DNA of 64,000 nucleotides from Candidatus Omnitrophota bacterium (lineage in GTDB: Bacteria > Omnitrophota > Gorgyraeia > Zapsychrales > JANLHA01): contig JAKLFA010000003.1 in the NCBI GenBank assembly GCA_022711395.1, positions 98,509 to 162,508 of the forward strand. Reading direction: 5' to 3'. The translations under genes were made by a program, and so were the position numbers. The stretch's first letter is position 1. Each line of letters starts with the position of its first letter. Below the pieces are notes generated by a model that was given only the letters and a program-made list of their open reading frames with translations, ran no database searches and had not been told where the DNA came from. This document shows, piece after piece, positions 40,623 to 63,923 of this stretch.

Positions 40623-40643
40623 ATTAGGCCGCTGCCCCCGATT

Positions 40644-41441
40644 TTATATAATATCAAGAATCCGTTGAATTTGAGGAACGCCGTACTCTGCCCTTCCAGT
40701 AACAACTTTTAAATTCGGCAGCACTTCACACTGACCAAAACTATGAGTATGGCCGCACAATACCGTCATCTCAATCATAGGATGTTTTTCCATAAAATTC
40801 TTCAAGACATTTCCGACAACTTTACAAGAAAAAAACGGCAACCAATCATCTCCTGAAATTTGACCTTCATGCCAAGTCGCTTCTTTAAATGGCGGGACAT
40901 GAGTCAAAACAATGATCCTGTTATGCTTCTTTACTGCAAGAGGAAGAACCCGTCTAAAATGTTCTGCCGCTTCATTAGCCAATTCCTGAATAGCACTTAA
41001 ACGCAGGGTCCGATCCCTCGTCTTCAATTCATCGATCAAATAAAAATCATTCAGTTCTACAGAACTACGGTAAAAATCTCCAAACCGTCCATCAGCCCAG
41101 GAATCATGCCCGATCAAAACCGTGTGAGTCGATAAGCTTACAGAGTCGACTGCATTTAACCAAATTAAATTCTCAGAATTTTTTACCAGATCAGCAACCA
41201 TTGATCGGGTTCCCTTGATCGATCCCTCATAATAATCATGGTTACCAAGAACAAAATAGATCGGTCGCTTTAAAACAGATTCCGCATGCTTAAGATAATC
41301 AATGATCTTATCGGCTTCGCCAATATCTCCCGAAACAAAAAAACAATCAACCGTTTCCTCAGATACCAGCAACAGGAACTCTTCCAGTTGATCGTGTTTT
41401 AAAAAATTCAAATGAATATCTGTTAACCAAGCCGCATTCAT
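40644..41441 (-). CDS. Metallophosphoesterase (calcineurin-like)
   Basis: DIHLN, GDIGE, GNHDYY and GHTH motifs. AT-rich codon usage marks it as part of the foreign island. Confidence 0.8.
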   Translation of the reverse strand: MNAAWLTDIHLNFLKHDQLEEFLLLVSEETVDCFFVSGDIGEADKIIDYLKHAESVLKRPIYFVLGNHDYYEGSIKGTRSMVADLVKNSENLIWLNAVDSVSLSTHTVLIGHDSWADGRFGDFYRSSVELNDFYLIDELKTRDRTLRLSAIQELANEAAEHFRRVLPLAVKKHNRIIVLTHVPPFKEATWHEGQISGDDWLPFFSCKVVGNVLKNFMEKHPMIEMTVLCGHTHSFGQCEVLPNLKVVTGRAEYGVPQIQRILDII

Positions 41442-41493
41442 TTTTATTAAAATCCCGCCCTCATGTACGTAAAAAGCTCTCCAGCCGTCTCTT

Positions 41494-42285
41494 CTATGTT
41501 AATTGTGCGATCAATTCTTGAAACCGTTCAAAAATATCCGTCCTTAAATCATCAATAAATACATCCGGTCCATTTTCTTTTTCAACCATCAAACAACCGG
41601 GGCTTGAATTACGCTTAAAATATTTTTTCAAATTCTTTGCCGCTTGCGGCAACTCACCCCTTTTATAATATTGATGAAACTCTTTCAAAATAACATCAAG
41701 GTCGGGAGCATAGCGCAATATAAAGTAGATATAAAAAAGATCTTTCGCTTGTTTTAATTCGTCCTCACGCTCAACAAACACCGCTGATTTATGATAAATA
41801 AAAGCTGAGGGTCTAGGACATAATAAAGAATGGGTTTTATCTCTTCGTGCATCTTTGACGCTGACTGGCGCTGAATGACTCAATAAGAAATCGAAGTCGG
41901 GAAGTTTGTTAAGGCTCATTTGAACCCCAACGAGTTTTTCGACATTCTCTACCGGAATATCCGTCGAACTGATAAAGTCAATGCGAACTTTCCCGCTCTT
42001 AAATAAAACAACCGGATACATCCGATTCATATCTAGATGGCGTTCAGTATAATCAAAGTCCGACAAAATCTGAAAGATGGTTTTCTTATGAACTCGCGGC
42101 TTCTTTGGGCTCACACCAAAATCAATATCCAATGTTGTAACCGGGTTAACAGTAAAATTTTTCCAGATAAAGCGGGGATAAACATACGCCAACCATCCCC
42201 CAACAAGCGTAAGCTCACCGAGATATTCATTCAAATCATCAAGCACACAAAAAAATAAATCTTCTGACTCCATATTATTGGCCAA
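41494..42285 (-). CDS. Nucleotidyltransferase-fold protein, AbiEii-like toxin candidate
   Basis: LTLVGGWLAYVY...R...TLDIDF is an NTase-fold G-G...D-x-D pattern. It overlaps the upstream partner gene by 11 nt. Confidence 0.45.
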   Translation of the reverse strand: MANNMESEDLFFCVLDDLNEYLGELTLVGGWLAYVYPRFIWKNFTVNPVTTLDIDFGVSPKKPRVHKKTIFQILSDFDYTERHLDMNRMYPVVLFKSGKVRIDFISSTDIPVENVEKLVGVQMSLNKLPDFDFLLSHSAPVSVKDARRDKTHSLLCPRPSAFIYHKSAVFVEREDELKQAKDLFYIYFILRYAPDLDVILKEFHQYYKRGELPQAAKNLKKYFKRNSSPGCLMVEKENGPDVFIDDLRTDIFERFQELIAQLT

Positions 42286-42958
42286 GGGTTTTTCCTTCCT
42301 GTTCCAGCTTTTCTTTTAAGAACTCCGACTGCTCTCTCCCCCTGGGCTGAAAATGATATAAATCTAAAAATAACTGCAAATTGGAAACAACAGAATATCC
42401 TTCGATCTTTTGACTGTTTGCAAAAGTGCTTGTTTTATAATACGGCTCAATAAAATGCACATTTCCCCCGGAAACAAGCTCTTTCAAATCAAGTTTCTGC
42501 CGGACATTAAGAATATCCTTATCCCAGTTATCCGTTCTCAAATAAATGTATACTTGATCTGTTTTCACATAAGACGTTAATAAATTAGCACCTGAATGAA
42601 GCGTCAGCGCATAGGTATGATTATTAAGAACGGCTTTCATTTTTTTCAATATATCTTGGTCGTGAGTGTAATACGTCTTGACTGTATTAAGCTCAAACTT
42701 ATAAAATTGCGTCCATTCTTTGATAAGCTTGTCAGGGTAAGTCAACACTGTATGACTCTCTGGTCCTTTTTTGATACGCTCCGCATATCCCTTTTGAGCG
42801 ATGATCTCTAAAACCTGCTGTGTTAATCCGAGACTAACCCCTTCAGGCCCGTTGAAATCTCGCACGACCCATTTGCGATCAGGCTCTTGAAGCATCTTCC
42901 TAAGAATTAATGTCGCCTTATCAGCAAATATGTTCTTTTTATATGTCTTTTTGTTCAT
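42275..42958 (-). CDS. wHTH regulator, AbiEi-like antitoxin candidate
   Basis: Likely start MNKKTYKK at 42958, with a wHTH-like N-terminus (ATLILRKMLQEPDRKWVVRDF...GVSLGLTQQVLEII). Nested operator palindromes lie immediately upstream. Confidence 0.4.
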   Translation of the reverse strand: MNKKTYKKNIFADKATLILRKMLQEPDRKWVVRDFNGPEGVSLGLTQQVLEIIAQKGYAERIKKGPESHTVLTYPDKLIKEWTQFYKFELNTVKTYYTHDQDILKKMKAVLNNHTYALTLHSGANLLTSYVKTDQVYIYLRTDNWDKDILNVRQKLDLKELVSGGNVHFIEPYYKTSTFANSQKIEGYSVVSNLQLFLDLYHFQPRGREQSEFLKEKLEQEGKTLGQ

Positions 42959-43018
42959 AATGTTCACCAATCTATCAATGTTCACTCTTTAGTGAACAAT
43001 ATATAATATATGAACATT
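42959..43018. promoter_or_regulatory. Operator-like nested inverted repeats
   Basis: Half-sites TGTTCAC at 42961 and 42979, and GTGAACA/TGAACAT at 42992 and 43011. TGTTCAC-TCTTTA-GTGAACA is a perfect 7-bp IR. TATAAT-like sequences fall between the sites. Confidence 0.55.
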
Positions 43019-43022
43019 AATG

Positions 43023-43184
43023 TCAAGCGCTCTGGACATACTCACCGTTCTGCTCTTCCTGCACGATGCGCCGGCCCGTTTCCCAGGCAAACCTGACCTG
43101 CGCCTCCCGCGCGTTGGTGTACAGAGCGGAAATATCCTCGACGAGTTTTTGGAACCTGTTTTTAGCTGGAAGGTTGGTGGGCAT
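43023..43184 (-). pseudogene. Truncated N-terminal remnant of a DUF1016 (YhcG-like PDDEXK nuclease) gene
   Basis: A GC-rich 162-bp segment inside the AT-rich island. It encodes MPTNLPAKNRFQKLVEDISALYTNAREAQVRFAWETGRRIVQEEQNGEYVQSA, matching the conserved DUF1016 N-terminus (..NxxLvxLYWxIGrxI..eq.G). It stops abruptly at the AT-rich operator sequence. Confidence 0.5.
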
Positions 43185-43201
43185 GGGCGGTCACCTGTTA
43201 T

Positions 43202-44404
43202 TTACGAATATGTTTCCTTTGTAAAACGCCAATCATATCCATAAGCTTTTTTACGATACCCATATCCTGTTGTACATGGTTTGCGCAAACAAACAGAACT
43301 AATTGATGAAACACAGTTCGTATTTTTAACTTTGCCTTTTTCTACTAGCCACTTTGCCGCCTCATGCTGGCTTGAAAATACTTTCAAAATATTCCCCGAC
43401 TGCAAATCAATCATACAAACTTCTTTACTTGTTTTCGCTGCAGCAGCTTTAGCTCTTTTTTGTGCATTTGCTTGCGCTTCTTGAGAATGTTTATTCTTCC
43501 ATTCTTTTAATGATGCTTTACGCTTTTCATTAGCTTTTTGGCTTGTACGCGAACTTATTAGCTTTTCCTGCCAAGCCTTATATTTTTCTGGGTTTTCTTT
43601 AGCCCACTTTTTAAAGCCAGCTTTTCGTTTTGCTTGGCATTCAAGAGTTTTAATTTTTTCGTGACTTTTCTTTTTTGCTTCAGCATATTCCTTGGGGTTT
43701 TCCTCTCTCCACCTTACAATACGCTTACTAAACATTTCACGATATTTTTCTGAGCTCATGACTTCTTTTATTCTTCGACTACGCGCGCGAAGTTCTGGTG
43801 TATCACCCGATCGAAAAGCTTTTTTGGATGCTTCAAGCATCGGTTTAAACTGCTCAGGATGATTTTTTATATACTCACGTTTCTTTTCGCTTGTTTCTGC
43901 GATGGATGGATGCTTAGTTGTTCCACCGCCGCCAGCAACAAGATTAAGGCATTTTTCATCAGACAAAAGGTCTTTATCGACAATAGTCGCTTCAAGTTGT
44001 TCTGCTTCCTCAGCGGTCTCACATTTTGCGATATAATAACGCGCAAATCGATCTTTATATTTTTTAAACTTATTTACAAATTTTAGTCCAGATCCTTGAT
44101 ATCGTTTTAATTGAGACCATGTGGGCCGATTAGCTTTACCAATATAATATTCGCCGCTTTCCCAGTTTATTTGAATATAAATTACTCTATAATAACCATC
44201 ACTTTCATTTCGTTTACGAACAAGTTCACTTGGGGTTAAAACATCAAACCAACGGTTTTTTATTGCAATACGCTGTTTATTGAAACCCCATTTTGCTGAA
44301 TTACGTTTTGAATCAAAAAAAGCGGACAGATTGTCATCCAAAGACAATTCAGCCGGATTAAATTCCTGCCAAACTCTGATATTTTCATTAATTGTTATTA
44401 TCAT
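43202..44404 (-). CDS. GIY-YIG homing-endonuclease-like protein with a C-terminal IENR1/NUMOD-like DNA-binding repeat
   Basis: N-terminal YYRVIYIQINWESGEYYIGKA (GIY...YIG). Lys/Glu-rich linker. C-terminal KVFSSQHEAAKWLVEKG...TTGYGYRKKAYGYDWRF matches the intron-encoded nuclease repeat pattern (F-x-S-x-x-EAA...G-Y-x-W-x-F). Confidence 0.6.
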   Translation of the reverse strand: MIITINENIRVWQEFNPAELSLDDNLSAFFDSKRNSAKWGFNKQRIAIKNRWFDVLTPSELVRKRNESDGYYRVIYIQINWESGEYYIGKANRPTWSQLKRYQGSGLKFVNKFKKYKDRFARYYIAKCETAEEAEQLEATIVDKDLLSDEKCLNLVAGGGGTTKHPSIAETSEKKREYIKNHPEQFKPMLEASKKAFRSGDTPELRARSRRIKEVMSSEKYREMFSKRIVRWREENPKEYAEAKKKSHEKIKTLECQAKRKAGFKKWAKENPEKYKAWQEKLISSRTSQKANEKRKASLKEWKNKHSQEAQANAQKRAKAAAAKTSKEVCMIDLQSGNILKVFSSQHEAAKWLVEKGKVKNTNCVSSISSVCLRKPCTTGYGYRKKAYGYDWRFTKETYS

Positions 44405-44574
44405 GCTTTAATTGAAATAAAAGTGACGCGCACATTTATTGACTCATTTAAAAAAGGTGTACGTCACGCGTCCCGTTTATTATTTATTCATTTTATCTCG
44501 TGGCTCCGGATTCTTCTGCATAAGCCCATTGAATTCGTCTGCAGTCTTACAGACCAATTTTTTTACCCTTCATT

Positions 44575-46239
44575 TTATTGCTTACACCAAGCGGCGATGG
44601 TATTAATATTCTTCTTTATTGCCGCAGAGATTTGATCATCGCCAAGCCCATCAATTTTAATTAAGACACTGCTTGCCTTATGATCAGCATTCCGAAAAAT
44701 TCCAAGTTCTTCTTCAAATGATTTATCGAATACCGCTAAAGCATCCTCCATAATCCAAGAACACGGTCTTTTGTTATCAGACTCGTCTTTCTTTCTACCA
44801 TCTAGGTCAAAAACGGTAAAATATGGTATTCCAAAGGCTTTGCATAATAGCTGGTAATATGGGATCTTCGACTTCCCATTTGCACTGATAATGGTCACGT
44901 CACAAAGACTTTTATTAATCTTATTAGCCAAAACCGGCATTCCATATTTCTCAGCGGGTCCTTCAACAATTAAACATTTACGGGCAAAGAATATTTGATT
45001 ATCCTCACGAAAGAATACTGTTTTATGCTGATGAAATTTTTTAATCTCATCGAGGTGCTCCGACACTTCCTTGTTTTCTATAACCTCATTCAGCTTTTCT
45101 GCCTCCGGCGTATTCTTAAAATCTCTGTTGAACCGACTTATTGAATCCCAATTGGCGATACTTATAAAACAATCCGATTGCGTTGTGTAAACTATTTGAG
45201 ATGATGATTTTTGAAATTCCTTGAACAATCTCGACTGCAATTGAGGATGCAAATGAAGTTCCGGCTCATCTATAAGAAATACTATTTCCCCTCTCGAAAG
45301 ACTACTAATAATCTCTAATAAAAAATAAGCCAATAAAATGGAGATACCGGAACCGAGGTTTTTCTGGTCAATTTGATTCGACCCATCGCGTAATGAGAAA
45401 AAAGATTTTAAAAACGGCTGTTCGATATCCAATAAACTCAGCTCTAGATTTTCGCACTCAATACCAACAAAATCTTTTAGCTTCTCTCCTAGCGGCCGCA
45501 TAATGCGGTCATTTTTTGGATCAATCACAGTGGCGATAACCTGGCTGTAAAAATCTTCCCACTTCTGCACGATATCCACCTGAACCCATTTATTCCTGTA
45601 TCGCCAGTTTAAATCCTTTATTATTTTACTCAAAAGCGTATTAAAACCGGTACTTGCTTCACTTTCTCTGTCACGATCAAAATAAAATATGTTTGGATAA
45701 TTTATGAATTCATTCTGCAGTGATAACCTTTGCTGTGTGAACTTAAAGACAGAGTTAGCTGTTTTACGCGGAGATTCATATCCTTGATCAGTCTTAAGCA
45801 CTTTATCTGGGATTTTGGTTGATAGCGCATCTAAATAAATGCACTGAAGCTCCTCTTTAGAGTTATACAAAATTGGTACAGCATATTTCTCTGTCACGAA
45901 CGGATCAGACAATGCTTTTCCTCCCGCGGCCTGTTTTCTTCTATGCGCTGAAAACACGACGCTTCGACACAAAATATCCTGAGTGGTATACCCATCGGGT
46001 ATCTTACACAAAAAGGGCTTATCGAAATATACTGTTATCCCCAAATCTCCTTCGTCGCTATTATTGAAATCTTGCTCAGTGATATATGCATATCCTGATG
46101 AAGTTGCTAAATTAATAGCTTCTAAAATCGTGGTTTTGCCACAACCGTTTTCTCCAATTAAGGCATGACATTTTTGAAAATCGACATCAACTTTCTTAAA
46201 ACATCGAAAATTATTTATTTCTATTCTAGATATTGCCAT
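44575..46239 (-). CDS. OLD-family ATP-dependent endonuclease (ABC ATPase plus Toprim), apparently stand-alone (class 1-like)
   Basis: Walker A GENGCGKTT. ABC signature and Walker B region (VFLIDEPELHLHP). C-terminal Toprim (LIVEGPAEKYG ... FTVFDLDGRKK). Confidence 0.8.
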   Translation of the reverse strand: MAISRIEINNFRCFKKVDVDFQKCHALIGENGCGKTTILEAINLATSSGYAYITEQDFNNSDEGDLGITVYFDKPFLCKIPDGYTTQDILCRSVVFSAHRRKQAAGGKALSDPFVTEKYAVPILYNSKEELQCIYLDALSTKIPDKVLKTDQGYESPRKTANSVFKFTQQRLSLQNEFINYPNIFYFDRDRESEASTGFNTLLSKIIKDLNWRYRNKWVQVDIVQKWEDFYSQVIATVIDPKNDRIMRPLGEKLKDFVGIECENLELSLLDIEQPFLKSFFSLRDGSNQIDQKNLGSGISILLAYFLLEIISSLSRGEIVFLIDEPELHLHPQLQSRLFKEFQKSSSQIVYTTQSDCFISIANWDSISRFNRDFKNTPEAEKLNEVIENKEVSEHLDEIKKFHQHKTVFFREDNQIFFARKCLIVEGPAEKYGMPVLANKINKSLCDVTIISANGKSKIPYYQLLCKAFGIPYFTVFDLDGRKKDESDNKRPCSWIMEDALAVFDKSFEEELGIFRNADHKASSVLIKIDGLGDDQISAAIKKNINTIAAWCKQ

Positions 46240-46301
46240 TACGCCCTCTTATTATTGAACTTATAAAAATAAAGGCAACGGACACATTTGCTACGTTCCC
46301 T

Positions 46302-46652
46302 TTATGGCCGCTTTTCCATCCTGCCTTTGACCAGCTTGGCCGGATACTTCCTGGCGTTCTTCTTTATCTTCCTGAGGACCGCCTTTTCCAGGTCGATCCC
46401 GTATAGGCCGCAAAACCCCATCAAATAAATGGCCACATCCGCGACCTCATCCTCGATCTCAAATTTTTTGCGTTTGTCTTTCAAGATCTGAGCCGCCTCT
46501 TCAGCCGAATTCGTCCACTGGAAATGCTCCATGAGCTCCGCCGCTTCGATAGACAGGGACATGCTCAAATTTTTTGGGGTATGGAATTTTTCCCAATCCC
46601 GTTCTTTAACGAATTTTTTTATTTTATCCTGGATCAAAGATATTTCATTCAT
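46302..46652 (-). CDS. MazG-like nucleotide pyrophosphohydrolase
   Basis: EAAELMEHFQW and EIEDEVADVAIYLM match the MazG EExxE/D motifs. Start taken at the Met with a GGGGGAA RBS (the track ORF extends to 46712). Confidence 0.8.
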   Translation of the reverse strand: MNEISLIQDKIKKFVKERDWEKFHTPKNLSMSLSIEAAELMEHFQWTNSAEEAAQILKDKRKKFEIEDEVADVAIYLMGFCGLYGIDLEKAVLRKIKKNARKYPAKLVKGRMEKRP

Positions 46653-46776
46653 GCAATTCCCCCGATCAGAAAATAATAAAGGCCAGGGAGCTCCTGGCCA
46701 CAATACAGTCATTACGTTTTTTATATCTCAACTTTAAAAAAGCGTCCGTCATGTTTTTTGTTTTTTCCTATTTTTT

Positions 46777-47916
46777 TTAGGAATCATATTCACTCTTAAA
46801 ACTCCCTAGAGAATGCGTATTAATTTTATAAACAGACTCTTCTATTTTATAAATAATAACATTATCAGAATTAAATTCCTGCAGATGGCTTAATGTTGCA
46901 ACCTGACCCGGAACCAATTGAAGTTTTTTTCTTAAAATCCAATTCCCCAATTCTTTATTGGGATCGCTCATTAAAGCTTTACATCCCTGCTGACAAACCT
47001 TTGCTGTCATTTCCCTCCCATCATCTGTAATAAGCTTAAACTTCTGGTCTTTCGGCGGGAAAAAGCCGGGCTTCACCTGATGGATAATCTGTGGAATCGG
47101 AATATAAACTTCATCCGGATGACGAGACCGTCCGCCCGCATTCCATTGGTTAAGGCCGGATTTCAATGAGACTTTTCCTGTTCTTGTACTGTAAAGAGGC
47201 AGAATCACATAATCTGTTTTCTTGATAAGACTGCGATCTACAGTATCCGGCTCACTAAGTTCATCAAGGGCTGCATTTAAAAGCGCCTTGTTTAAAAACC
47301 CGTTAATTTCTACAGCATCAAAATATTGCGCATAACTAAAATCCATAAGAAGAACACTCTTGGATATATTGAATGTATATTTAAAATACTTATCTTCAAA
47401 AGCCACTGACCCCCGTTTTTTTTCGATCCCTCTAATTGAAGGAAGATCAATAGGGATCATAGGACACTCTGCGATATATATTTTCCCTACATCCCGAACA
47501 ACATAATGATAAACGGTGTTTTTAAGGCCGTACGCCTTTACCGTTTCTTCTATCCGCTGATTCCTATATAAAGCAACCTGCTTTATTAAATGATCATCAT
47601 TTGTTAAATCTAATGGGAACTTCGCGCGGTTGTTAAACTCAGCCACTTTTTCTGTCCCGCGCATTGCTGGTTTTGCCAAAAAAGTTTTTACGCCTATCCC
47701 ATCTGTGATCTTAACAGCATCAACCGAAACATCTTTTCGGGTTTCGTCAGAGGCTTCAAAGGCTTTGCAGAAAATTTTTTCAACAACCCGATAAGGCAGA
47801 TACGGTTTTGTATTTCCGCTGAATATTGGACTAAGCTGAGCTGTGCCTAATATAAGCTGTTTGTATTTTTTTCTCTGAGGGGATGATTGTTTAGGATAAA
47901 AGGGGTCAAAAAACAT
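46777..47916 (-). CDS. Putative type II restriction endonuclease (partner of the adjacent C5-methyltransferase)
   Basis: 379 aa with no methyltransferase motifs. Position is immediately downstream of the dcm-like and vsr genes in the same orientation. AT-rich. Confidence 0.5.
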   Translation of the reverse strand: MFFDPFYPKQSSPQRKKYKQLILGTAQLSPIFSGNTKPYLPYRVVEKIFCKAFEASDETRKDVSVDAVKITDGIGVKTFLAKPAMRGTEKVAEFNNRAKFPLDLTNDDHLIKQVALYRNQRIEETVKAYGLKNTVYHYVVRDVGKIYIAECPMIPIDLPSIRGIEKKRGSVAFEDKYFKYTFNISKSVLLMDFSYAQYFDAVEINGFLNKALLNAALDELSEPDTVDRSLIKKTDYVILPLYSTRTGKVSLKSGLNQWNAGGRSRHPDEVYIPIPQIIHQVKPGFFPPKDQKFKLITDDGREMTAKVCQQGCKALMSDPNKELGNWILRKKLQLVPGQVATLSHLQEFNSDNVIIYKIEESVYKINTHSLGSFKSEYDS

Positions 47917-47950
47917 TATCCAGCTGTTCTTTCCATTAGAGCGTTCTGCT

Positions 47951-49012
47951 TCATCCTGCAGCCGGCTCTAATACATTTTGAACTCGATAGGATCCGGCAG
48001 CATTCTGATATTTCATATCTAAAGCAATCCTAATCTTTTCCGCGATACGGCGTATTACAGGAACACTCACAGAATTTCCCATCTGCTTATAAAGATGCGC
48101 TGAGGCTATATCGGGAAGACGAAAATCATCGTCAAACCCCTGCAGGCGGGCACATTCACGCGGAGTCAGCTTGCGAATGCCGTAATTATCACGGACAAGC
48201 GGAACATTATGGCCTCCGGTTCCCATATTTGCTGTCAAAGTCGGGCATACTCCGCTTTTATTCTCCCGAAGATAAACCCTCCGCCACTGATAAACAGTAT
48301 TCTTAGATTTCATCTGTTCATTCAGAACTTTATAAAAACCGCATTTCTCAGTATAGTAATATTTTCTGTCAACTTTCTTTTGTTCTAAAATGTCTCGACG
48401 GACCGTTTTTGTTAATTCACTCTTTTGAGGAAAAGAAAAATTATCAGAACAACTCCCGTCTCCTCTTACCCATGCAGATTCGTCTTGAAAACCGACAATA
48501 TAAATTCTTTCTCTGGTCTGCGGAATATTGCCGTACTCCATTGTATTAAGAACTTTCGGAATAAAAGAATAGCCCGTATCTTTAATTGTTTCTTCCATCA
48601 CGCGGAATGTTCTGCCGTTGTCATGGGCAATAAGATTTTTGACATTTTCTAAAAGAAATGCTTTCGGCTTAAGACTTGTAATTATTTTCATCGTTTCAAA
48701 AAACAAATTACCCCTGGAGTCTTCAAATCCCTTTCTGTAACCGGCAATAGAGAATGCCTGACATGGAAAACCGGAGGTAATAACATCCGTCTTATCAAGA
48801 AAGCTCATCTTCTGATTAACCAAATCATGAACATCGTCTGGAAAGAATTTATGGGAAAAATTGGATTCGTAAGTGATCTTTGCATTCTTATCAAATTCAT
48901 TTGCCCATAAAAGCTGAAAACCTGCCTGTTCAAAGCCTCGGCAGATCCCGCCTATTCCTGCAAATAAACTTCCGACCGTATACTTTGCTTTTTTTACCAT
49001 GTTATGATTCAT
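47951..49012 (-). CDS. dcm: DNA (cytosine-5)-methyltransferase
   Basis: Motif I FAGIGG, motif IV PCQAFS, motif VI ENV. Confidence 0.9.
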   Translation of the reverse strand: MNHNMVKKAKYTVGSLFAGIGGICRGFEQAGFQLLWANEFDKNAKITYESNFSHKFFPDDVHDLVNQKMSFLDKTDVITSGFPCQAFSIAGYRKGFEDSRGNLFFETMKIITSLKPKAFLLENVKNLIAHDNGRTFRVMEETIKDTGYSFIPKVLNTMEYGNIPQTRERIYIVGFQDESAWVRGDGSCSDNFSFPQKSELTKTVRRDILEQKKVDRKYYYTEKCGFYKVLNEQMKSKNTVYQWRRVYLRENKSGVCPTLTANMGTGGHNVPLVRDNYGIRKLTPRECARLQGFDDDFRLPDIASAHLYKQMGNSVSVPVIRRIAEKIRIALDMKYQNAAGSYRVQNVLEPAAG

Positions 49013-49070
49013 TTCAATCCTCCATTTTAAGGGGGAAATTTAAGGAATGAGGATTGAAGCATGTTACCAC

Positions 49071-49505
49071 TCATATGTGTGGAATGTCAATACTTTTCTT
49101 TTCTTCAAACAACGGCTTTAATTTAGAAAAAACTTTTAATTCCTTTTTTACTTCACACTCCCAAACTGTAATAATACGCCAACCATCTTTTTTTAACGCT
49201 CGTTTATTTATTTTATCGCGTTCTAAATTTCTTTCAAGTTTCGGAACCCAATATTTTTTATTTGTTTTTGGTACATTTGCCCGGCGGCATCCTTTATGGC
49301 AATGCCAAAAACATCCGTGAACAAAAACTACAGTTTTATATTTAGGAAGAACTATATCCGGCTTCCCGGGAAGACTTTTTACATGAAGCCCGAATCTAAA
49401 TCCCACCCTATGAAGAATACTTCTAACTATCTTTTCGGGCTTCGTATCCGCGGCCCGTATGCGGGACATATTCCAGCTTCTTTTTTCTCCGCTCAAATGG
49501 TCCAT
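49071..49505 (-). CDS. vsr: Very short patch repair endonuclease
   Basis: SWNMSRIRAADTKPE N-terminus. FVHGCFWHCH zinc motif. Length 144 aa. Confidence 0.9.
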   Translation of the reverse strand: MDHLSGEKRSWNMSRIRAADTKPEKIVRSILHRVGFRFGLHVKSLPGKPDIVLPKYKTVVFVHGCFWHCHKGCRRANVPKTNKKYWVPKLERNLERDKINKRALKKDGWRIITVWECEVKKELKVFSKLKPLFEEKKSIDIPHI

Positions 49506-54816: not shown

Positions 54817-56103
54817 ATGCATAATATCGGAAACATCTTTCGCGCGCTGCGCAACAAAAACTACCGCCTCTTCTTCTGCGGGCAGAGCGTCTCTTTGATC
54901 GGGACCTGGATGCAATCGATCGCCATCAGCTGGCTGGCCTACCGGATGAGCAATTCCATTTTTGTGCTGGGCCTTGTGGGCTTCGCCCTGCAGATCCCGA
55001 CGTTCGTGCTCTCGCCTTTGGCCGGGATCGCCGCCGACCGCCACGACCGTCACCGGCTGTTGATCGTGACCCAGGCGCTGTCGATGCTGCAGGCGCTCAT
55101 CCTCGCCGCCCTGGTCATGAGCAATGTCATCACCATCTGGCAGATCGTAGTCTTAAGTATCTTTTTAGGAACGGTCAACGCCTTTGATATCCCGATCCGG
55201 CAGGCTTTTCTTCTGGAAATGATCGACAACAAAGAGGACCTGGGCAATGCCGTGGCCCTCAATTCATCCATGGTCAACATGGCCCGGCTCATCGGCCCGT
55301 CGATCGCAGGGTTTCTGATCGCCATGGTCGGCGAAGGGGTCTGCTTTTTGATCAACGGCATCAGTTATGTGGCGGTCTTAAGCTCACTGTTTATGATGCG
55401 CGTCAAAAAACGCGAGCCCGCGGTCCACACCGCGGACATTTTGACCCGGATCAAAGAAGGGGTCGTCTACGCCTATAATTTTGTGCCGATCCGGATCCTG
55501 TTATCGACGCTGGGGCTGATCAGCCTGGTGGGCGGCGGGCTGCAGACACTGATGCCGGTCTTTGCCCGGGAAATTTTCCGCGGAGGGCCGCAGACCTTAG
55601 GGGTCCTCATGGCGGCGACTGGGCTGGGCGCTTTGAGCGGAGCGGTCTTTCTGGCGAGCCGTGACACGGTCTTAGGGATGGGGCGGCTGATCGGCAGGGT
55701 CACGATCGTTTTCGGCCTGTGCATCATCGCCTTCTCGGTCTCGAACATCCTCGCGCTGTCTCTGGTTCTGCTTTTTGTCGCCGGGTTCAGCATGATGGTG
55801 CATATGGCCTCCAGCAACACGCTTTTGCAGCTTATTACCGAAGAGGACAAGCGCGGGCGGGTGATGAGTTTTTATACCATGGCCTTCATGGGAACGGTCC
55901 CCATCGGAAGCATTGCCGCCGGAAGCCTCGCGGCGCGCTCCAACGTGCACATTGTGCTGTTCGGCTGCGGAATCCTCTGCCTCGTTGCCTCCGCGCTCTT
56001 TTGGAAAAAACTCCCGGTCCTTAGAGAACAGATCCGTCCGATCTACGCCGAAAAAGGCATCATTCCGCAGGTGGCCAAAGGGATCGGGCAAGTGACGACC
56101 TAG
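54817..56103 (+). CDS. MFS transporter (EntS/MFS_3-like exporter)
   Basis: 12 TM helices; length 428 aa. Confidence 0.85.
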   Translation: MHNIGNIFRALRNKNYRLFFCGQSVSLIGTWMQSIAISWLAYRMSNSIFVLGLVGFALQIPTFVLSPLAGIAADRHDRHRLLIVTQALSMLQALILAALVMSNVITIWQIVVLSIFLGTVNAFDIPIRQAFLLEMIDNKEDLGNAVALNSSMVNMARLIGPSIAGFLIAMVGEGVCFLINGISYVAVLSSLFMMRVKKREPAVHTADILTRIKEGVVYAYNFVPIRILLSTLGLISLVGGGLQTLMPVFAREIFRGGPQTLGVLMAATGLGALSGAVFLASRDTVLGMGRLIGRVTIVFGLCIIAFSVSNILALSLVLLFVAGFSMMVHMASSNTLLQLITEEDKRGRVMSFYTMAFMGTVPIGSIAAGSLAARSNVHIVLFGCGILCLVASALFWKKLPVLREQIRPIYAEKGIIPQVAKGIGQVTT

Positions 56104-59100
56104 CGCCTCAGTGCCGCGGCGATCCATTCCTTCGCCCGCAGCAAGACCCAAAAGACCACCGGCACGAACAAAAAGGTGAACAGGACCGAGGCCAACATCC
56201 CGCCGATCATGACCCCCGACATGGATTTTTTGTAGGGAACAAGGGTGAATAATTGCGGAACAACGCCCAGGATGATCGCGATCGACGTCATCAAAACCGC
56301 CTTGAACTTCACGCTTACGCCCAGCCAAAGCGCCTCTTTGATATCCACGCCTTCTTTCATCTTCTGGACCGTGTAATCCAGAACCAGGATCGCGTTGTTG
56401 ACGACCAGCCCCACCAGCATGACCATGCCCATCATGGCCATCATGTCGATGCTCATCCCCTGAAAGAATAAGACCACATACACCCCGACGAAGGACATCG
56501 CCACCGAAAAGATAATGGCCAGAGGTATCAAAAACGAATTCAGGATCGCCGCCAGCAGCATGTAGGTCAGGATAACGGCCAGGATAAAGGCCTTGCCGAT
56601 CTCAGCGCCGGACTCTTCCTGATGTTCGGAATCCCCGGAATAACGGTAGCCGTATCCTTCCGGAAGGTCCATTTTTTGTTTTACCAGCCTGTCGATCTCA
56701 GCGGCCGCGACACCCAAAGACCCTTTGGAAAGGTCCCCGTCCAGCGAAATGACCCGATCCCGGTCGCGGTGCTTGATCGCCGGCAGGGCGATGCTGTCTT
56801 TCAGCGTTCCGAACTGCGTGATGGGAAACATCCCCTTAAGCGTGATGATATCGATGGCGCGCACATCATCAAAATCCCGTTTGTATTCGTCGGCCAGTTC
56901 CACATTAATGTCATAATCCTCGCCGGACTCTTTATACGTGTTGGTGTCATCCCCGAAAACGGCGGTCCGCAGGATGTTGCCGACCCGCGCCGGCGAGACC
57001 CCGTAATTGTTGACCGCTTCCTGGTCAGGGATGAATTTCATTTCTTTCTTGGGCTTCTTATACGAGGAGACCACCGAGCGAAAATACCCGGTCTCTTCCA
57101 TGACCGCCTTCATCTGCTGCGAAAGCCGGATCATCTCATCATAATCTTTCCCGTAAAAATTGATCTGGACGTCCGCTTCAGCGTCCCACCCCCGGCTCAT
57201 GCGGACCTCCATGTCCGGGATCCGCGAGACGAACGGGATCAGCTCATTGATGATATCCATGTCGCTGCGCTTGCGCTTTTCGGCGTCGGTCAGGTTGATG
57301 GTCATGTCGATATTCTCAACGCCGTTGTTGCCGACGCGCGTCAGATAGGAGGATACCTCCGGGATCGCGGAGACGCGCCGCTCGATTTTTTTGGCCGCCT
57401 CCAGGCTGCGGTCGATGGTGGAGCCCTGAGGCAACGACGCCTTCACATAGATCTTGTCCGTGTCCGATTTGGGCATAAAATCCGACCCCAGATACGGAAT
57501 ATAGATACGCGACGACATAAACACCAGAAGCGCCGCCAGAAGCGTCCATTTCCAATATTTAAAAGTGGCCTCAAAGACATGGCCGTATTCCTTTTTGATG
57601 AATTCAAGGATGCGGTCGGTCTGTTCCACCAGCCAGTAGAACGGCCTTGAAAAACGATGGCGCCTGCCCTCGCCTTTCGCCGAGCCCAAAACCAGCGCGC
57701 AAAGCATCGGCGTGAGCGTGAAGGACGCCAGAAGCGAAAAGACCGTCGCGTAAATGACCGTCAGGCCGAACGGCCGGAAGAACTGCCCGACAATGCCGCC
57801 CATGGAGGCGATCGGCGTAAACACAACAAGGTTCGTTCCCGTCGAAGCCAAAACCGCGATCAGGACCTCTTCGGTCCCTTTGATCGCCGCGTTATGGGGC
57901 TCTTCGCCCTTTTTCAGGTGGACCAGGATGCTTTCGATAATGACGATGGCGTTAGCGATCAGCGTCCCCAGGGCTGTGGCCATGGCCAACAGCGTGATGA
58001 TATTGATCGTGAAGCCCGACATGCCCATCAAGGCGAAGGTCGAGACGATCGAGGTGGGGATGATCACCGCCGAAATGAAGGTGATGCGGAAATTTCCCGT
58101 GAACAAGAACAAAAGCGCGATCGTGTAAAGGATGCCGACGATGATGTTTTCCTGCGTGGACTTGACCTCATCGATGATGGAGGTCGTGTTGTCGCTTGCG
58201 ATCTGAAGCTCGACCCCTTGCGGCAAAAAACCCTGGAACTGCTTAAAGCGCTTCTTGAACTGCTTGAAAATATTGATCGCGTTGCCGTCGGAGACCTTCA
58301 TCACCGAAAGGCCGACCACGTTCTTTCCGTTAAAGCGGGCGATCGAATCCGCCTTTTTAAAGCTGTCGGTGACCGTGGCCACCTCGCTTAATTTCAGCGT
58401 CCGCCCGTCCGATGTCGTGATCTGCAGGTCCTTGATCTCATCCGCCTCCTCAAACTCCCCCACGAAACGGACGCTCAGCGAATTGTCCCCTTTTTCCAGA
58501 AGCCCGCCCGGGATGTTGGTGTTGCGGTTGCTGATGGCATCCACGATGTCCGTGATCGTCAGGTAATACTGTTTCATCAGCATGGGGTCGGCCTTGATGT
58601 TGATCTGGCGTTCTTTGCCGCCGTAGATATCCACATTGGCGACCCCTTCCAGCGAAGAAAGCCTCTGCCGGAACCTCTTGTCCGCGAACTCATACAGGTC
58701 GCGCTCGCTGACCGTGTCGCTGACAAGGACCAGTTCCATGACCGGCGTCAACAGGGGGTCGAACTTCTCAATGATCGGCTTTTCAATGTCCTGCGGAAGG
58801 TCGTTCAGGATCGCCTCGACCTTGTCCTTGACCTCGATGGATTTGACGTTCACGTCGGCCGAAAGCAGGAATTCAATGTAGACATATCCGAGATTGTCAT
58901 AGGATTCGCTGCGGATCTTCTTGATCTCCGAAAGCTCTGAGACCGCGTCCTCGATCTTGTCGATGACCAGGGTCTCCACCTCCAGAGGCGTGGCCCCCGG
59001 ATACTGGATGGTCACCGTGACGATCGGAAAGTCGACCGAAGGGAATTCTTCGATGTTAAGGGTAAAATAGGCCGCGATCCCCAAAACCACAAAGACCATG

Positions 59101-59147
59101 ACGAACATGATCGTGGTCACCGGATGCCTGACAAAAAAACGGATCAT
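56100..59147 (-). CDS. RND efflux transporter permease (AcrB/HAE1 family)
   Basis: 1015 aa with canonical 12-TM RND topology. N-terminus MIRFFVRHPVTTIMFVMVFVVLGIAAY. Confidence 0.9.
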   Translation of the reverse strand: MIRFFVRHPVTTIMFVMVFVVLGIAAYFTLNIEEFPSVDFPIVTVTIQYPGATPLEVETLVIDKIEDAVSELSEIKKIRSESYDNLGYVYIEFLLSADVNVKSIEVKDKVEAILNDLPQDIEKPIIEKFDPLLTPVMELVLVSDTVSERDLYEFADKRFRQRLSSLEGVANVDIYGGKERQINIKADPMLMKQYYLTITDIVDAISNRNTNIPGGLLEKGDNSLSVRFVGEFEEADEIKDLQITTSDGRTLKLSEVATVTDSFKKADSIARFNGKNVVGLSVMKVSDGNAINIFKQFKKRFKQFQGFLPQGVELQIASDNTTSIIDEVKSTQENIIVGILYTIALLFLFTGNFRITFISAVIIPTSIVSTFALMGMSGFTINIITLLAMATALGTLIANAIVIIESILVHLKKGEEPHNAAIKGTEEVLIAVLASTGTNLVVFTPIASMGGIVGQFFRPFGLTVIYATVFSLLASFTLTPMLCALVLGSAKGEGRRHRFSRPFYWLVEQTDRILEFIKKEYGHVFEATFKYWKWTLLAALLVFMSSRIYIPYLGSDFMPKSDTDKIYVKASLPQGSTIDRSLEAAKKIERRVSAIPEVSSYLTRVGNNGVENIDMTINLTDAEKRKRSDMDIINELIPFVSRIPDMEVRMSRGWDAEADVQINFYGKDYDEMIRLSQQMKAVMEETGYFRSVVSSYKKPKKEMKFIPDQEAVNNYGVSPARVGNILRTAVFGDDTNTYKESGEDYDINVELADEYKRDFDDVRAIDIITLKGMFPITQFGTLKDSIALPAIKHRDRDRVISLDGDLSKGSLGVAAAEIDRLVKQKMDLPEGYGYRYSGDSEHQEESGAEIGKAFILAVILTYMLLAAILNSFLIPLAIIFSVAMSFVGVYVVLFFQGMSIDMMAMMGMVMLVGLVVNNAILVLDYTVQKMKEGVDIKEALWLGVSVKFKAVLMTSIAIILGVVPQLFTLVPYKKSMSGVMIGGMLASVLFTFLFVPVVFWVLLRAKEWIAAALRR

Positions 59148-59150
59148 AGA

Positions 59151-59852
59151 TCATTCCTTATTTTGAACGATATTCACAGGGTCATTGTTTTTCAAGAAGG
59201 TCTGGCCGGCGGTCACAAAAAGGTCGCCCTCCTTGAGGCCTTCGGTCACGATCGCGCCGTAGCCGTTGCGCTGATCGACTGTGACCTCCACCTGCCGCGC
59301 ACGGCCGTTTTCGATGCGCCACCCGTAATAATGCTCCCCGGCCGCGTCCAGGCTTTCCACGGGGACATTGATGGCGCTTTTGATCGTCTCATAATGAACG
59401 CGGGCAACGGCCATCTTCGCCTCCTGCTCGATCGCGCGTTCGAATCTCACGCGGACCCGATACATCCCGTTGGCCATGTCCGGCTCTTCAGCGACCAAAA
59501 GCACCTTGCCCGGGACCGGATCCCCGGCCTCCAGCCGTCCGTCCTGGCGCACCCAATACAGGTCCTGCCCTTGCGATAATTTCTGCTGGACCGATTTTGA
59601 AACAAACCCCTCGTAGAGCAGATCCTCTCCGGTGGCGAGGACCGTGATCTTCAAATACTGTTTAACATCCCTGCGGGAAAGTTTCTGCGCCTCGACCGGT
59701 TTTCCCTGGCGCGCCCACTCATCGACCGTGCTGATGATGCTCGCCTGCCGGCGGGAGGTGATCAGCAGCTGCTGGATCTTGACCGCCAGCGCGTAGACGG
59801 CGATGATGAGGATGTAGCCCCAAAGACGTTTGGATCTCCATTGAATGTTCAT
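59151..59852 (-). CDS. RND efflux periplasmic adaptor (membrane fusion protein)
   Basis: Start MNIQWRSKRLW... Its ATG overlaps the TolC stop (ATGA). It lies between the TolC-like and RND genes. Confidence 0.75.
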   Translation of the reverse strand: MNIQWRSKRLWGYILIIAVYALAVKIQQLLITSRRQASIISTVDEWARQGKPVEAQKLSRRDVKQYLKITVLATGEDLLYEGFVSKSVQQKLSQGQDLYWVRQDGRLEAGDPVPGKVLLVAEEPDMANGMYRVRVRFERAIEQEAKMAVARVHYETIKSAINVPVESLDAAGEHYYGWRIENGRARQVEVTVDQRNGYGAIVTEGLKEGDLFVTAGQTFLKNNDPVNIVQNKE

Positions 59853-61177
59853 AACAGGTCTTTCCTGAGCGTTAACTGTTCGATCCTGGCGAGCATGACA
59901 CAAATATTATAAATGGTCCTCTCGCGGTTTAAGCGCTGCTGCGTGAGCTGAAGCTCCGCGTCATTTAAGTCCGTCAGGGTCGCCGATCCGGTCTTAAAAA
60001 AATCCTGCGTCAGATGAAAAGACTCCTCGGCAAGCCGGACCGCTTCATTGTTCGCCCCCAGCGTCTTGATCAGATCGTGGTATGAGGCGATCGCCTGGTC
60101 CAGTGCCAGGCCGAACTGCTCCTGCGCCTTGCGAAGGCCGAGCTCAGAATCCCTCTTCTGGATGCGCGCCGCCTGCAGATCGCCTTTTAAGAACCCTCCG
60201 GTCCAGATCGGGACGGAGACCTTGACCCCGACGGAGCCGTAATCATCCATGTTCGGCCCGTATGGATCCGGGTCCTGATCGTCCCCTTTATGGTTCCAGG
60301 TGGCGAAGCTTGAGACCTCCGGCAAGAACGAGGCCTTTTTCGCGTGAACAAGGTCCTCCCGAAGCTCCACCTCTTTGGACAGGGCCTTTAAAGCCGGCTC
60401 ATTGACGTTCATCGCCTCCAGCATCGCCGCCCCGTCGATCGCTTGATATTCCCTCTCAAATTCGTCGCTTAAAAGAACGTCCGCGGAAGACTCCATCCCG
60501 ATCATGACCTTGAATTCTTGATACGCCGTGTGCCGCGTCTTTTCGGCGTCATTGACCAAAGGCTGGCGCGCGGCCACGTCCGCGCTGGCTTTTAAGAAAT
60601 CCCGCCGGGACACCCGGCCTGAAGCGGAGCGGTCTTCCAGGATCCGCTTATTGTCTTCAGCGTTATGCAGCGACTTCAGCAGGATGTCATAACTGTGGTC
60701 GGCCAGTTTCACGCTGAAATAGCTGACCTTAGCGTTGTAGATCACCGCCTGCCTCATGGCCTCTTCGTTGAAGCGGGCGACATCCATATATTTGTCCTGC
60801 GCGTTGATCGCGGCGCGCACCTTGCCGAAGGACCACAAAAGCTGATCGAGCGAAACGCCCACGTCCGAAAAATAATCCTGCGTGCCCTGCGCCGCGCCCG
60901 GATATTCAAAATTGTGCGTGACCTTGCCGGTGCCCGTGATCTGCGGATAGAGCGCGGATTTTTCTTTCTTGTAATCCGCCCGGCTTTTCTCGACGCTATT
61001 GCGGCTGATCAAAAGGTCCTCGCTCGACTCCAGGGCCTTTTCAATGGCTGTGCTCAGATCGATCTTCACGGCCTCTTTCGCTGCGGCCTGCCCGGCGCGG
61101 ACCGGAAAACACGCGCTCAACAGCCCGAACAGTAAAAAAAACCCGCCGGCCCATATGTTCGAAGGCATTCTGTTCAT
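59849..61177 (-). CDS. TolC-family outer membrane efflux protein
   Basis: Signal peptide. Two coiled-coil/beta repeats typical of outer-membrane factor proteins. Length 442 aa. Confidence 0.85.
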   Translation of the reverse strand: MNRMPSNIWAGGFFLLFGLLSACFPVRAGQAAAKEAVKIDLSTAIEKALESSEDLLISRNSVEKSRADYKKEKSALYPQITGTGKVTHNFEYPGAAQGTQDYFSDVGVSLDQLLWSFGKVRAAINAQDKYMDVARFNEEAMRQAVIYNAKVSYFSVKLADHSYDILLKSLHNAEDNKRILEDRSASGRVSRRDFLKASADVAARQPLVNDAEKTRHTAYQEFKVMIGMESSADVLLSDEFEREYQAIDGAAMLEAMNVNEPALKALSKEVELREDLVHAKKASFLPEVSSFATWNHKGDDQDPDPYGPNMDDYGSVGVKVSVPIWTGGFLKGDLQAARIQKRDSELGLRKAQEQFGLALDQAIASYHDLIKTLGANNEAVRLAEESFHLTQDFFKTGSATLTDLNDAELQLTQQRLNRERTIYNICVMLARIEQLTLRKDLL

Positions 61178-61178
61178 A

Positions 61179-61838
61179 TCATTTCGCTCCTATGGCTTTA
61201 TATAAAAAGGACAGCTGCTCCTGATAACGGCCGTTGATGCTGGCGAAATCCTCGATCTTGATCGTTAAGGCGATGCCGATGGCGATCGACATCAAAGCGA
61301 ACATCACCTGTTCGACATCCAAAGCAGGATCGATCTCATGGCCGTTCTGGGCCTCCTTGATCAACGCCGCAAAAAGGTCCTCCAAAAGGCCGATCCCCAC
61401 GTCCCCGATCCCGGGGCAGTCCGGATAAGCGTATTCTTTTTCCAAAGGCGACAGGGCCAAGGCCTCAGGCCTGCGCTGCTCACCGGTAAAGATCGAGATC
61501 ATTTCATAGAACAGATACGGCGGCTGCAGCTCAACCGAGATCAGCTCAAAGACATATTGGATCAGCTACCAGGGGCTCAGCTCGCTTTTTTTCCGGTTGA
61601 TCTCCCAGGCGATCTTCACGCTGACCAGGCTTTTGTAATAATAAACGACATCCACCTTCTGGGGGAAATAATTGTAGAATGTCCCTTCCGAGACCTCCAC
61701 GCTTTCGCAGACTTCCTTAATAGAGATATTGGCAAACCGCGTTGTCTTGAGCCGGGACATAAAGGCCTGCATCAGAGAGACTTTGGTTTTGACGAATTTT
61801 TTTTCACGAAGGGAATAATCCTGTTCGGCTGGGATCAT
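61179..61838 (-). pseudogene. TetR/AcrR-family transcriptional regulator interrupted by an in-frame TAG (amber) codon at 61566-61568
   Basis: AGGAG RBS and an ATG at 61838. The N-terminal HTH (KTKVSLMQAFMSRLKTTRFANISIKEVCESVEVSEGTFYNYFPQK) is in ORF 61566..61985. The C-terminal ligand domain is in ORF 61179..61502. Both are in the SAME frame (66 nt between the TAG and the downstream ATG), so this is a nonsense codon, not a frameshift. Confidence 0.7.
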
Positions 61839-61971
61839 GACTTCTCCTTTAATGTTGCTCAAAGTATAGACCACTTTAATTCTATAGTCAACTATAAATT
61901 TGTCTCTAAAAAAGACATTCCCCAAAAAGTGTGCTAAACTAAAGGCCGGTTTTTTCAAAAGGAGGTCCCTT

Positions 61972-63015
61972 ATGCCTACAGTCAAAGCTTACGGAGTTTC
62001 TCATTCGACAGAACCCCTCAAACCATTAACGATCGAGCGCCGCGAAACCGGCGAGCATGATGTGACGATCGACATCGCCTATTGCGGCATCTGCCACAGC
62101 GACATCCATCAGGCCCGCAACGAATGGGGCAATTCGATCTATCCGATGGTCCCGGGCCACGAGATCGTCGGCACCGTTTCAGCCGTCGGAAAAAAGGTCA
62201 AGCGCTTGAAACCCGGCGACAAGGTCGGCGTGGGCTGCCTGGTCGATTCCTGCGGCGAATGCCCGGACTGCAAAGAAGGTTTAGAACAGTTCTGCGTGCG
62301 GCCGGTCTTTACCTACAACAGCATGGAGAAGGACGGCAAAACGATCGCCCACGGCGGTTATTCCAAAGCGATCGTGGTGCGCGAGGATTTTGTCCTGCGC
62401 ATCCCCAAGAACCTTCCCATGGAAGCGGCTGCCCCTCTTTTGTGCGCCGGCATCACGACCTATTCCCCTTTGCGCCACTGGGGCGCCGGCCCGGGCAAGA
62501 AGATCGCCGTCATCGGCCTGGGCGGCCTGGGGCACATGGCGGTCAAGCTTGCCAGCGCCATGAAAGCCGAGGTCACGGTCTTAAGCCGCACGCTAAAGAA
62601 AAAGGACGATGCCATCCGGCTGGGCGCCCATTATGTTTACGCCACCGGTGACCCCGCGACCTTTGAAAAATTGGGCCGCCATTTTGACCTGATCATCAAC
62701 ACCGTTTCGGCCAAGCTGGACTGGGGACAGTATCTGGGACTTCTTAAACGGGATGGCGCCATGGTCCTTCTGGGGGTCCCTCCCGAAGCGCCGCAGGTCC
62801 ACGCCTTCCCGCTGATCATGGGCCGCCGCAGCCTGGCCGGGTCTTTGATCGGCGGCATCGCAGAGACCCAGGAGATGCTGGACTTCTGCGGGAAGCACAA
62901 CATCGCGGCCGATATCGAGCTCATCCCGATCCAGAAGGTCAACGAGGCCTACGAACGGGTGATGAAGGCGGACGTCAAATACCGCTTTGTGATCGACATG
63001 AAATCATTGAGTTGA
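61972..63015 (+). CDS. NAD(P)-dependent zinc-type alcohol dehydrogenase (YahK/cinnamyl-ADH family)
   Basis: GGAGG RBS. GHEIVG and GICHSD zinc motifs. [10 protein letters not shown] cofactor motif. Confidence 0.9.
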
Positions 63016-63083: not shown

Positions 63084-63923
63084 TTATCTCTGGCTTTTTC
63101 GCTTTCTTAACGCCATGCCCGTCAACCCCGCACCGAACAAAGCGATCGTCGCCGGCTCCGGAACAGCATTGGCTGTTTCGCCGATCAGCGTTGGATACTG
63201 ACGCAGAACAAGCGAGTTATAAACCTCAAGCCGCGCCAACTCCTCTTCTGTAAATTCCAGATAATCCGGAACATCCAGAGCAAAGATCGCGTAGATCGGC
63301 TCTTCGGTCTCAGGGTCCATCGTGTATTCGAAACCCTCGAACAGGATATTATCGTCCGAATGCACGGACGCGCTGGCGATCTCTTCGATCCATGGCGGGG
63401 TCCACTCTTCTGATTCCTCATCCGCATAGGCCCATCGAAACAGCGTCGGCGTCATGTCCTGGTCCGGCGCGTCAAAATCCAGCCCCGGAAACAGGTCCGC
63501 CACCCCGCTGTCTGAAAGCGAAACATACCCCACGCCCTCACCCCACAATCCCAGCTCGATCTCATACCCGCGCCAGGTTTCATTGGAATAATTATAGATC
63601 TCTTCCACGAACAGATATTCGTTCGTTCCGCCGGATGGCTCAAGCCCGAAATAAATATCGATCGGGTCCATGGTCTCGAAATATTTTCCGATAGAGATCG
63701 CGTTATAGCTCTCGGGCACCACCTCTGACCCCAAAAACACATTCAAAGCCTGTTCGTTGGTCATGGGATCATTGTCATTGTTTTCACCATTGACGTAATC
63801 ATCGATATAATCGATCCCTCCGCTGGCATCCCACACAGAAAAATAACCCGCGAAGGACTCGGACGCGGTAAACATGATGACAAAAACCGGCAAAATCATG
63901 GCAATGGACAATCTTTTCAACAT
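63084..63923 (-). CDS. PEP-CTERM sorting-domain protein, acidic (279 aa)
   Basis: Signal peptide. C-terminal [26 protein letters not shown]. Confidence 0.85.
   Translation of the reverse strand: MLKRLSIAMILPVFVIMFTASESFAGYFSVWDASGGIDYIDDYVNGENNDNDPMTNEQALNVFLGSEVVPESYNAISIGKYFETMDPIDIYFGLEPSGGTNEYLFVEEIYNYSNETWRGYEIELGLWGEGVGYVSLSDSGVADLFPGLDFDAPDQDMTPTLFRWAYADEESEEWTPPWIEEIASASVHSDDNILFEGFEYTMDPETEEPIYAIFALDVPDYLEFTEEELARLEVYNSLVLRQYPTLIGETANAVPEPATIALFGAGLTGMALRKRKSQR

Follow-up and report, generated by a model that had tools for sequence, protein, structure and literature searches.

In Gram-negative pathogens, TetR-family repressors such as AcrR of AcrAB and MtrR of MtrCDE adjoin RND operons, and loss of the regulator is a classic route to efflux up-regulation. 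AcrR, MtrR, and similar regulators are usually transcribed divergently from their pump genes. In Listeria monocytogenes, a premature stop truncates and inactivates the TetR-family repressor FepR of the fepRA operon, with >64-fold overexpression of fepA (PMC4154695). Here, we describe a locus of an uncultured Omnitrophota bacterium in which the first gene of an RND efflux operon encodes a TetR-family regulator and is interrupted by an in-frame amber codon. The locus was analyzed within a 64-kb stretch of DNA, the whole of which is referred to below as the window. The features of the window are collected in Table 1. A literature search for RND efflux in Omnitrophota returned nothing specific.

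Table 1. Features of the window and helices predicted for the intact regulator (positions are those of the window; residues are counted from the tetR start)
Feature	Coordinates	Strand	Basis or remark
TetR/AcrR-family regulator gene (tetR), 219 codons, interrupted at codon 91	61179..61838	-	translation, Pfam, homologue alignment, family profile, AF2/Foldseek
In-frame amber codon TAG, codon 91	61566..61568	-	translation and orthologue comparison
Shine-Dalgarno AGGAG, 5 nt 5' of the tetR ATG (61838)	61844..61848	-	read from sequence
90-codon product actually encoded, predicted helices 1-4 (HTH) plus two residues of helix 5	61569..61838	-	
Untranslated remnant, predicted helices 5-10 (ligand pocket, dimer interface)	61179..61565	-	frame open, no further lesion
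Internal 107-codon ORF from Met113, separately called "hypothetical protein"	61179..61502	-	gene callers
σ70-like promoter TTGACT-17-TATACT, 10/12 matches	61863..61891	-	sequence scan
Candidate operator site 1, perfect palindrome TATAGT-TG-ACTATA over the -35 box	61883..61896	-	
Candidate operator site 2, weaker copy TAAAGTGGTCTATA over the -10 box, 18 bp from site 1	61865..61878	-	
TolC-like outer-membrane factor (OEP), match 7e-55	59849..61177	-	profile search
AGGAG of the OEP gene, within the 3' end of tetR	61187..61191	-	
Short periplasmic adaptor, 233 aa	59151..59852	-	C-terminal half of the RND_mfp profile only
RND permease, 1015 aa, full-length ACR_tran match, ends in TAG	56100..59147	-	
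Zn-dependent alcohol dehydrogenase gene, divergent from tetR	61963..63015		
279-aa ORF, adjoins the divergent alcohol dehydrogenase gene	63084..63923	-	JGI call: weak PEP-CTERM/exosortase match, PF07589
AbiEi_2 antitoxin and NTP_transf_8 nucleotidyltransferase	42985..41494		defence island
OLD-family AAA_15 and TOPRIM nuclease	46239..44575		defence island
MazG-like protein	46712..46302		defence island
NgoFVII-like restriction endonuclease	47916..46777		defence island
C5 cytosine methyltransferase	49012..47951		defence island
Vsr	49505..49071		defence island
Helix 1	residues 10-30		AF2 model of intact allele
Helix 2	residues 40-47		AF2 model of intact allele
Helix 3	residues 51-57		AF2 model of intact allele
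Helix 4	residues 61-83		AF2 model of intact allele
Helix 5	residues 89-103		AF2 model of intact allele
Helix 6	residues 107-120		AF2 model of intact allele
Helix 7	residues 131-137		AF2 model of intact allele
Helix 8	residues 152-165		AF2 model of intact allele
Helix 9	residues 175-192		AF2 model of intact allele
Helix 10	residues 195-216		AF2 model of intact allele

When the minus strand was translated from 61838 to 61179, 90 sense codons were found to be followed by TAG, by 128 codons in the same frame, and finally by TGA at 61181..61179, so that the translation runs MIPAEQ...SELSPW (stop) LIQYVFELISVELQ...KAIGAK (stop). Full-length homologues of 219 aa align over the TAG site without a gap, and the two halves are thus parts of one gene that was interrupted by a substitution and not by an indel. 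A preliminary description of the locus had reported this single in-frame TAG at 61566-61568, preceded by an AGGAG ribosome-binding site and unaccompanied by an indel; the translation and the alignment bear it out, and the AGGAG is present at 61848..61844. With a stop at a position where orthologues have a sense codon, and with a collinear remainder free of indels, tetR appears from its sequence to be a pseudogene created by nonsense mutation.

Assignment of the gene to the TetR family, which had also been claimed, is upheld by the family profile, the structural matches, and the homologues. As a single sequence, the product matches PF00440 (TetR_N) at residues 35-64 with a score of 23.6 bits, just below the 24-bit cut-off, and its second half matches TetR_C_13 weakly. 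The search for homologues returned 37 proteins, mostly of 217-224 aa and chiefly from Candidatus Omnitrophota MAGs; several of them carry the source names TetR/AcrR or AcrR, and some have a precomputed PF00440 match. A profile built from 35 homologues matched solved TetR proteins, Thermus thermophilus FadR among them, at E=3e-8, and MtrR aligned to the same 35-sequence profile over positions 11-184. The best matches to NCBIfam equivalogs, AcrR, MtrR, and similar models included, scored 20-27 bits against cut-offs of 129-280. Since no equivalog comes near its cut-off, none of the named regulators is an orthologue of the tetR product.

Structural context was obtained from an AlphaFold (AF2) monomer model of P0001, an intact allele that is 97% identical to the protein of the window. 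The model (pLDDT 92.2, pTM 0.87) consists of ten helices, and the 50 best matches listed in a Foldseek comparison with the PDB were TetR-family-type regulators, with a probability of 1.00 and TM values of up to 0.66. When mapped on the model, the stop at codon 91 falls at the start of helix 5, and helices 1-4, the predicted DNA-binding head, would be kept, while helices 5-10 would be lost. The proposed split between the HTH and the ligand domain thus agrees with the model of the intact allele. In TetR-family proteins, the ligand pocket and the dimer interface are built from the C-terminal helices (here, helices 5-10). A monomeric head composed of helices 1-4 would not be expected to have useful affinity for a palindromic operator, and the truncated product is very probably inactive, that is, a functional null.

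This conclusion would not hold if the 90-aa HTH fragment and a 107-aa fragment starting at Met113, the first in-frame start past the TAG, reassembled into a working regulator. Gene callers do predict both ORFs, but residues 92-112, which make up helix 5 and half of helix 6 in the model, would be absent from both pieces, and functional reassembly is therefore unlikely. Moreover, the sequence upstream of the internal ATG contains no Shine-Dalgarno element, and the split arrangement was found in none of the 80 relatives examined. We consider a regulator in two pieces to be scarcely credible and retain the functional null as the preferred reading of the truncation.

More than 13 public contigs, drawn from JGI, ENA, Logan, and Omnitrophota MAGs in GenBank, carry an identical TAG allele. 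Some of these contigs may re-assemble the same reads, and their names point to SPAdes (metaSPAdes), MEGAHIT, and JGI pipelines. JGI contig Ga0116241_10000028 (538 kb, sample 3300010429) is 100% identical to the window over the 5.4 kb compared. The 660-nt TAG allele was also recovered from JGI samples 3300009776, 3300009838, 3300009771, and 3300025902, from contig Ga0179938_1194922, from ENA assemblies ERZ795054, ERZ795055, ERZ761563, ERZ27257480, and ERZ27257455, and from Logan assembly SRR5007150; over 1.2-3.7 kb, these JGI, ENA, and Logan contigs match the window with 100% identity. In two GenBank Omnitrophota MAGs, the locus is annotated as a 90-aa "TetR/AcrR family transcriptional regulator" CDS (HRZ39985.1, HSA30487.1) followed by a 107-aa "hypothetical protein" CDS (HRZ39986.1, HSA30488.1). 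Public MAG annotations of the locus should be merged to one gene and flagged as a pseudogene.

A sequencing error had been named as an alternative in the preliminary description; an assembly error would likewise hide a true base that gives a sense codon. Some of the contigs have low coverage (2.6-5.5x according to their SPAdes names). Yet the same base is present in all of the more than 13 contigs, which represent several samples and JGI, metaSPAdes, MEGAHIT, and Logan assemblies, and the TAG at 61566..61568 lies outside any homopolymer. Recovery of one TAG from several samples and by three kinds of assembly sets this alternative aside, and we regard an error as having a negligible probability. 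The TAG, which is reproducible across samples and assemblers, is almost certainly a true nonsense allele.

The ends of one of these contigs differ in their match to the window. In Ga0179938_1194922 (L015), nucleotides 1-123 do not align to the window, and the other 1152 nt are 100% identical to it. The unaligned part may be a chimeric contig end or may reflect a rearrangement within the OEP gene in that sample.

Comparison with orthologues, which had been suggested as a check, recovered the ancestral sense codon. A sister lineage represented by six contigs (94-97% nucleotide identity at the locus) encodes the intact 219-aa P0001, in which codon 91 is CAG (Gln). The same CAG is found in an outgroup (L010) whose protein is 88% identical. 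Because the sister lineage and the outgroup both have CAG, the TAG is derived on the branch of the window. According to these alignments, the change from CAG (Gln91) to TAG is a single, lineage-specific C-to-T transition (G-to-A on the plus strand, at 61568). Relative to the sister lineage and the outgroup, no second stop or frameshift was found in tetR of the window. The other differences between the window and the sister lineage in this gene are few and mostly synonymous, and, together with the lack of a second lesion, they fit a recent mutation. On the 3' side of the stop, there are three unpolarised non-synonymous changes and no lesion derived in the window, a number of differences too small for relaxed selection to be judged. 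Neither allele was matched when species-representative genomes were scanned for the exact pattern; the best TetR relatives in these genomes are ~50% identical.

In lacI of E. coli, 5-methylcytosine sites are amber-mutation hotspots by way of C-to-T changes. A C-to-T change turned CAG into TAG here as well. It struck the first C of a pentamer GCAGC (GCWGC; window 61564-61571, minus-strand GGCAGCTG in relatives), and genes for a C5-methyltransferase, Vsr, and an NgoFVII-like endonuclease are present in the window. GCWGC occurs 157 times in the window versus 210 expected (0.75), a mild depletion that is not decisive for methylase specificity. Unlike in the lacI case, methylation is no more than a lead here, and origin of the amber codon by deamination of 5-methylcytosine is put forward as a speculation.

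The possibility of local read-through or recoding was also raised in the preliminary description. Stop codon usage was counted in 62 ORFs of the window, chosen greedily so as not to overlap and each ≥90 aa long; TAA was found in 25 cases, TGA in 22, and TAG in 15, one of the latter being the truncated tetR ORF. TAG is thus a normal stop elsewhere in the window, as had been stated, and ends ca. 14 other ORFs. Among these is the RND gene, whose ACR_tran match spans positions 1-1020 of the 1021 in the model; other ORFs ending in TAG carry complete amine oxidase, FMN reductase, dCMP deaminase, and TPR domains. The genes that follow the other TAGs belong to unrelated families and have their own start codons, and a list of same-frame junctions with a single stop in the window showed that the other coding-strand TAG junctions separate unrelated adjacent genes. 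Genome-wide reassignment of TAG was rejected on the basis of stop codon usage and of the complete domains of the TAG-ended ORFs.

There remains decoding at this one site, by a suppressor tRNA, by pyrrolysine insertion, or by efficient read-through, any of which would allow a full-length functional repressor to be made. The 128 codons past the stop are indeed intact, but a recent mutation explains the intact downstream frame equally well. If tRNA-Gln read UAG as a near-cognate codon at a low level, exactly the ancestral Gln would be put back, and some repressor might still be made. No tRNA gene, a suppressor included, was found in the 64 kb that make up the window. Folding of the 135-nt segment that surrounds and follows the TAG was no more stable than that of shuffled sequences (MFE z = -0.16), and a full-text literature search gave no paper linking Omnitrophota with pyrrolysine use. 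Among the 80 relatives taken from species-representative genomes, not one carries an internal stop. These 80 proteins vary at the position that corresponds to residue 91 (A 22, D 12, P 9, E 9, K 6, Q 4, and others); in close relatives, the residue is Q or H, encoded by CAG or CAC-type codons. The TAG itself is not conserved. Since TAG ends ca. 14 other ORFs, relatives have no stop, the position is variable, and no unusual RNA structure is apparent, recoding is unsupported, and we consider decoding of the TAG to be very improbable. Termination at codon 91 is the reading followed below.

The gene had been placed directly upstream of, and in the same orientation as, genes for a TolC-like protein, an adaptor, and an RND pump, and the coordinates and profile matches agree with this arrangement. 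The tetR stop (61181..61179) is one base away from the ATG of the OEP gene, and the OEP, adaptor, and RND genes are all intact and of full length. With a permease, an adaptor, and an outer-membrane factor encoded together, the operon is predicted to specify a tripartite RND system. The adaptor is, judged by its profile match, atypical: it aligns to positions 178-321 of the 322 in TIGR01730 (RND_mfp), with a score of 65.9 bits versus a cut-off of 94.9. In typical adaptors, the N-terminal half of this profile covers the lipoyl and alpha-hairpin region; this half has no counterpart in the short adaptor. The short form (227-233 aa) is kept in the outgroup, in two other related loci (L011 and L013), and in ~50 further loci.

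The order tetR-OEP-short adaptor-RND is conserved around homologues that are 44-88% identical, and the same cassette was found in roughly 50 of the 80 related loci from species-representative genomes, mostly of Omnitrophota; the complete genome of Candidatus Velamenicoccus archaeovorus is among the loci with this order. The alcohol dehydrogenase gene on the other side of tetR adjoins it in the closest relatives only, with a different orientation in L010, and probably lies outside the tetR-pump unit.

Upstream of tetR, a near-consensus promoter overlaps two copies of a palindrome (Table 1). In 62 of the 80 related loci (L016-L095), a scan that allowed up to two mismatches revealed the palindrome TATAGT-NN-RCTATA in the 200 nt upstream of tetR, versus only 16 matches in the other 790 kb of these loci. 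Paired palindromes 18 bp apart are often seen in the related loci, as in the window. The 14-bp palindrome is thus an in silico candidate for a family-wide operator, although the motif overlaps the -35 and -10 hexamers and its conservation may in part be that of the promoter. From this arrangement, we infer that the palindrome is the site at which the regulator represses transcription.

The stop is real and derived, the protein is cut off past its HTH domain, and the promoter and the pump genes are intact. The sequence of events that we propose is as follows. The change of CAG (Gln91) to TAG would have been fixed in one clonal Omnitrophota genotype. Translation would stop at the start of helix 5, and only a monomeric DNA-binding head, devoid of the ligand pocket and of the dimerisation helices, would be made. 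In the intact system, a TetR dimer would bind the palindromes over the -35 and -10 boxes and occlude its own promoter until a ligand releases the dimer. In cells with the amber allele, which would have no functional dimer, the near-consensus promoter would fire constitutively, and the three intact pump genes would then be expressed all the time. The case for derepression, which the preliminary description had put forward as probable, is strengthened by the conserved operator-like palindrome over the promoter. On balance, net pump expression is more likely to be raised than not.

The nonsense mutation could be real and pump output nonetheless not raised, either because of polarity or because the operon is being lost, in which case the allele would be neutral or silencing. 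It is the leading gene of the operon that carries the stop, and 385 nt of untranslated mRNA separate the stop from the start codon of the OEP gene, a distance over which Rho-dependent polarity could offset derepression. However, this stretch contains 110 G and 94 C in the mRNA sense, and, not being C-rich and G-poor, it is unlike a Rho loading (rut) site. The only terminator-like match is weak and within chance expectation. The OEP gene has its own Shine-Dalgarno sequence, the three pump genes have stayed intact and of full length, and the allele persists unchanged in many datasets. We therefore consider the lack of any gain in pump output to be unlikely. Taken as a whole, the account of the locus that we favor with good confidence is that the null allele is real and that derepression most likely follows from it.

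A further step would be to regard the amber allele as adaptive: an efflux-repressor-null clone would have spread or persisted in many of the communities sampled because constitutive efflux was favored there, and the mutation may stem from deamination of a cytosine methylated by the C5-methyltransferase of the bacterium itself (47951-49012, in the defence island). We consider this extended scenario doubtful. If it were true, the locus would exemplify how, in nature, an uncultivated bacterium outside the clinic derepresses efflux through loss of a regulator.

Several other observations were made in the window. A low-GC island at 40600-49500 (GC 0.37-0.42 versus ~0.55 elsewhere) is a defence island, whose genes are listed in Table 1. 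Positions 1-2000 show a strong AT skew on the plus strand (-0.32) versus the rest of the window, and no tandem repeats were found at positions 1-4000.

The presence of a null allele in an uncultured Omnitrophota bacterium suggests that the repressor-loss route to efflux-mediated tolerance, a textbook one in pathogens, also operates in environmental bacteria of candidate phyla. With its natural pair of TAG and CAG lineages and its conserved palindrome, the cassette, which is found Omnitrophota-wide, is well suited to a test of its regulation.

Compared with the described systems, the locus is most like FepR/FepA in that a local TetR-family regulator, encoded just upstream of an efflux gene and in the same operon, is cut short by a premature stop. 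It differs in the transporter, which is of the MATE type in the case of FepA and a tripartite RND system here, and in the lesion, since the Listeria stop arose via a frameshift, whereas here it results from a direct nonsense substitution. In addition, the effect of FepR loss was established by experiments on a cultured pathogen exposed to drug selection, whereas here the steps beyond the genotype are deduced. The likeness to AcrR and MtrR consists in a TetR-family regulator beside an RND efflux operon. In contrast to those systems, the regulator gene is here the first gene of the operon and is followed by the OEP, adaptor, and RND genes, and the adaptor is only ~230 aa long. Loss of a repressor as a route to efflux is an already known mechanism, and, the different host aside, there is little in it to surprise a specialist. 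What is new is the host, an uncultured Omnitrophota clone; the layout of the operon, in which the regulator leads and the adaptor is unusually short; and the occurrence of the null allele, without any change, in many metagenomes.
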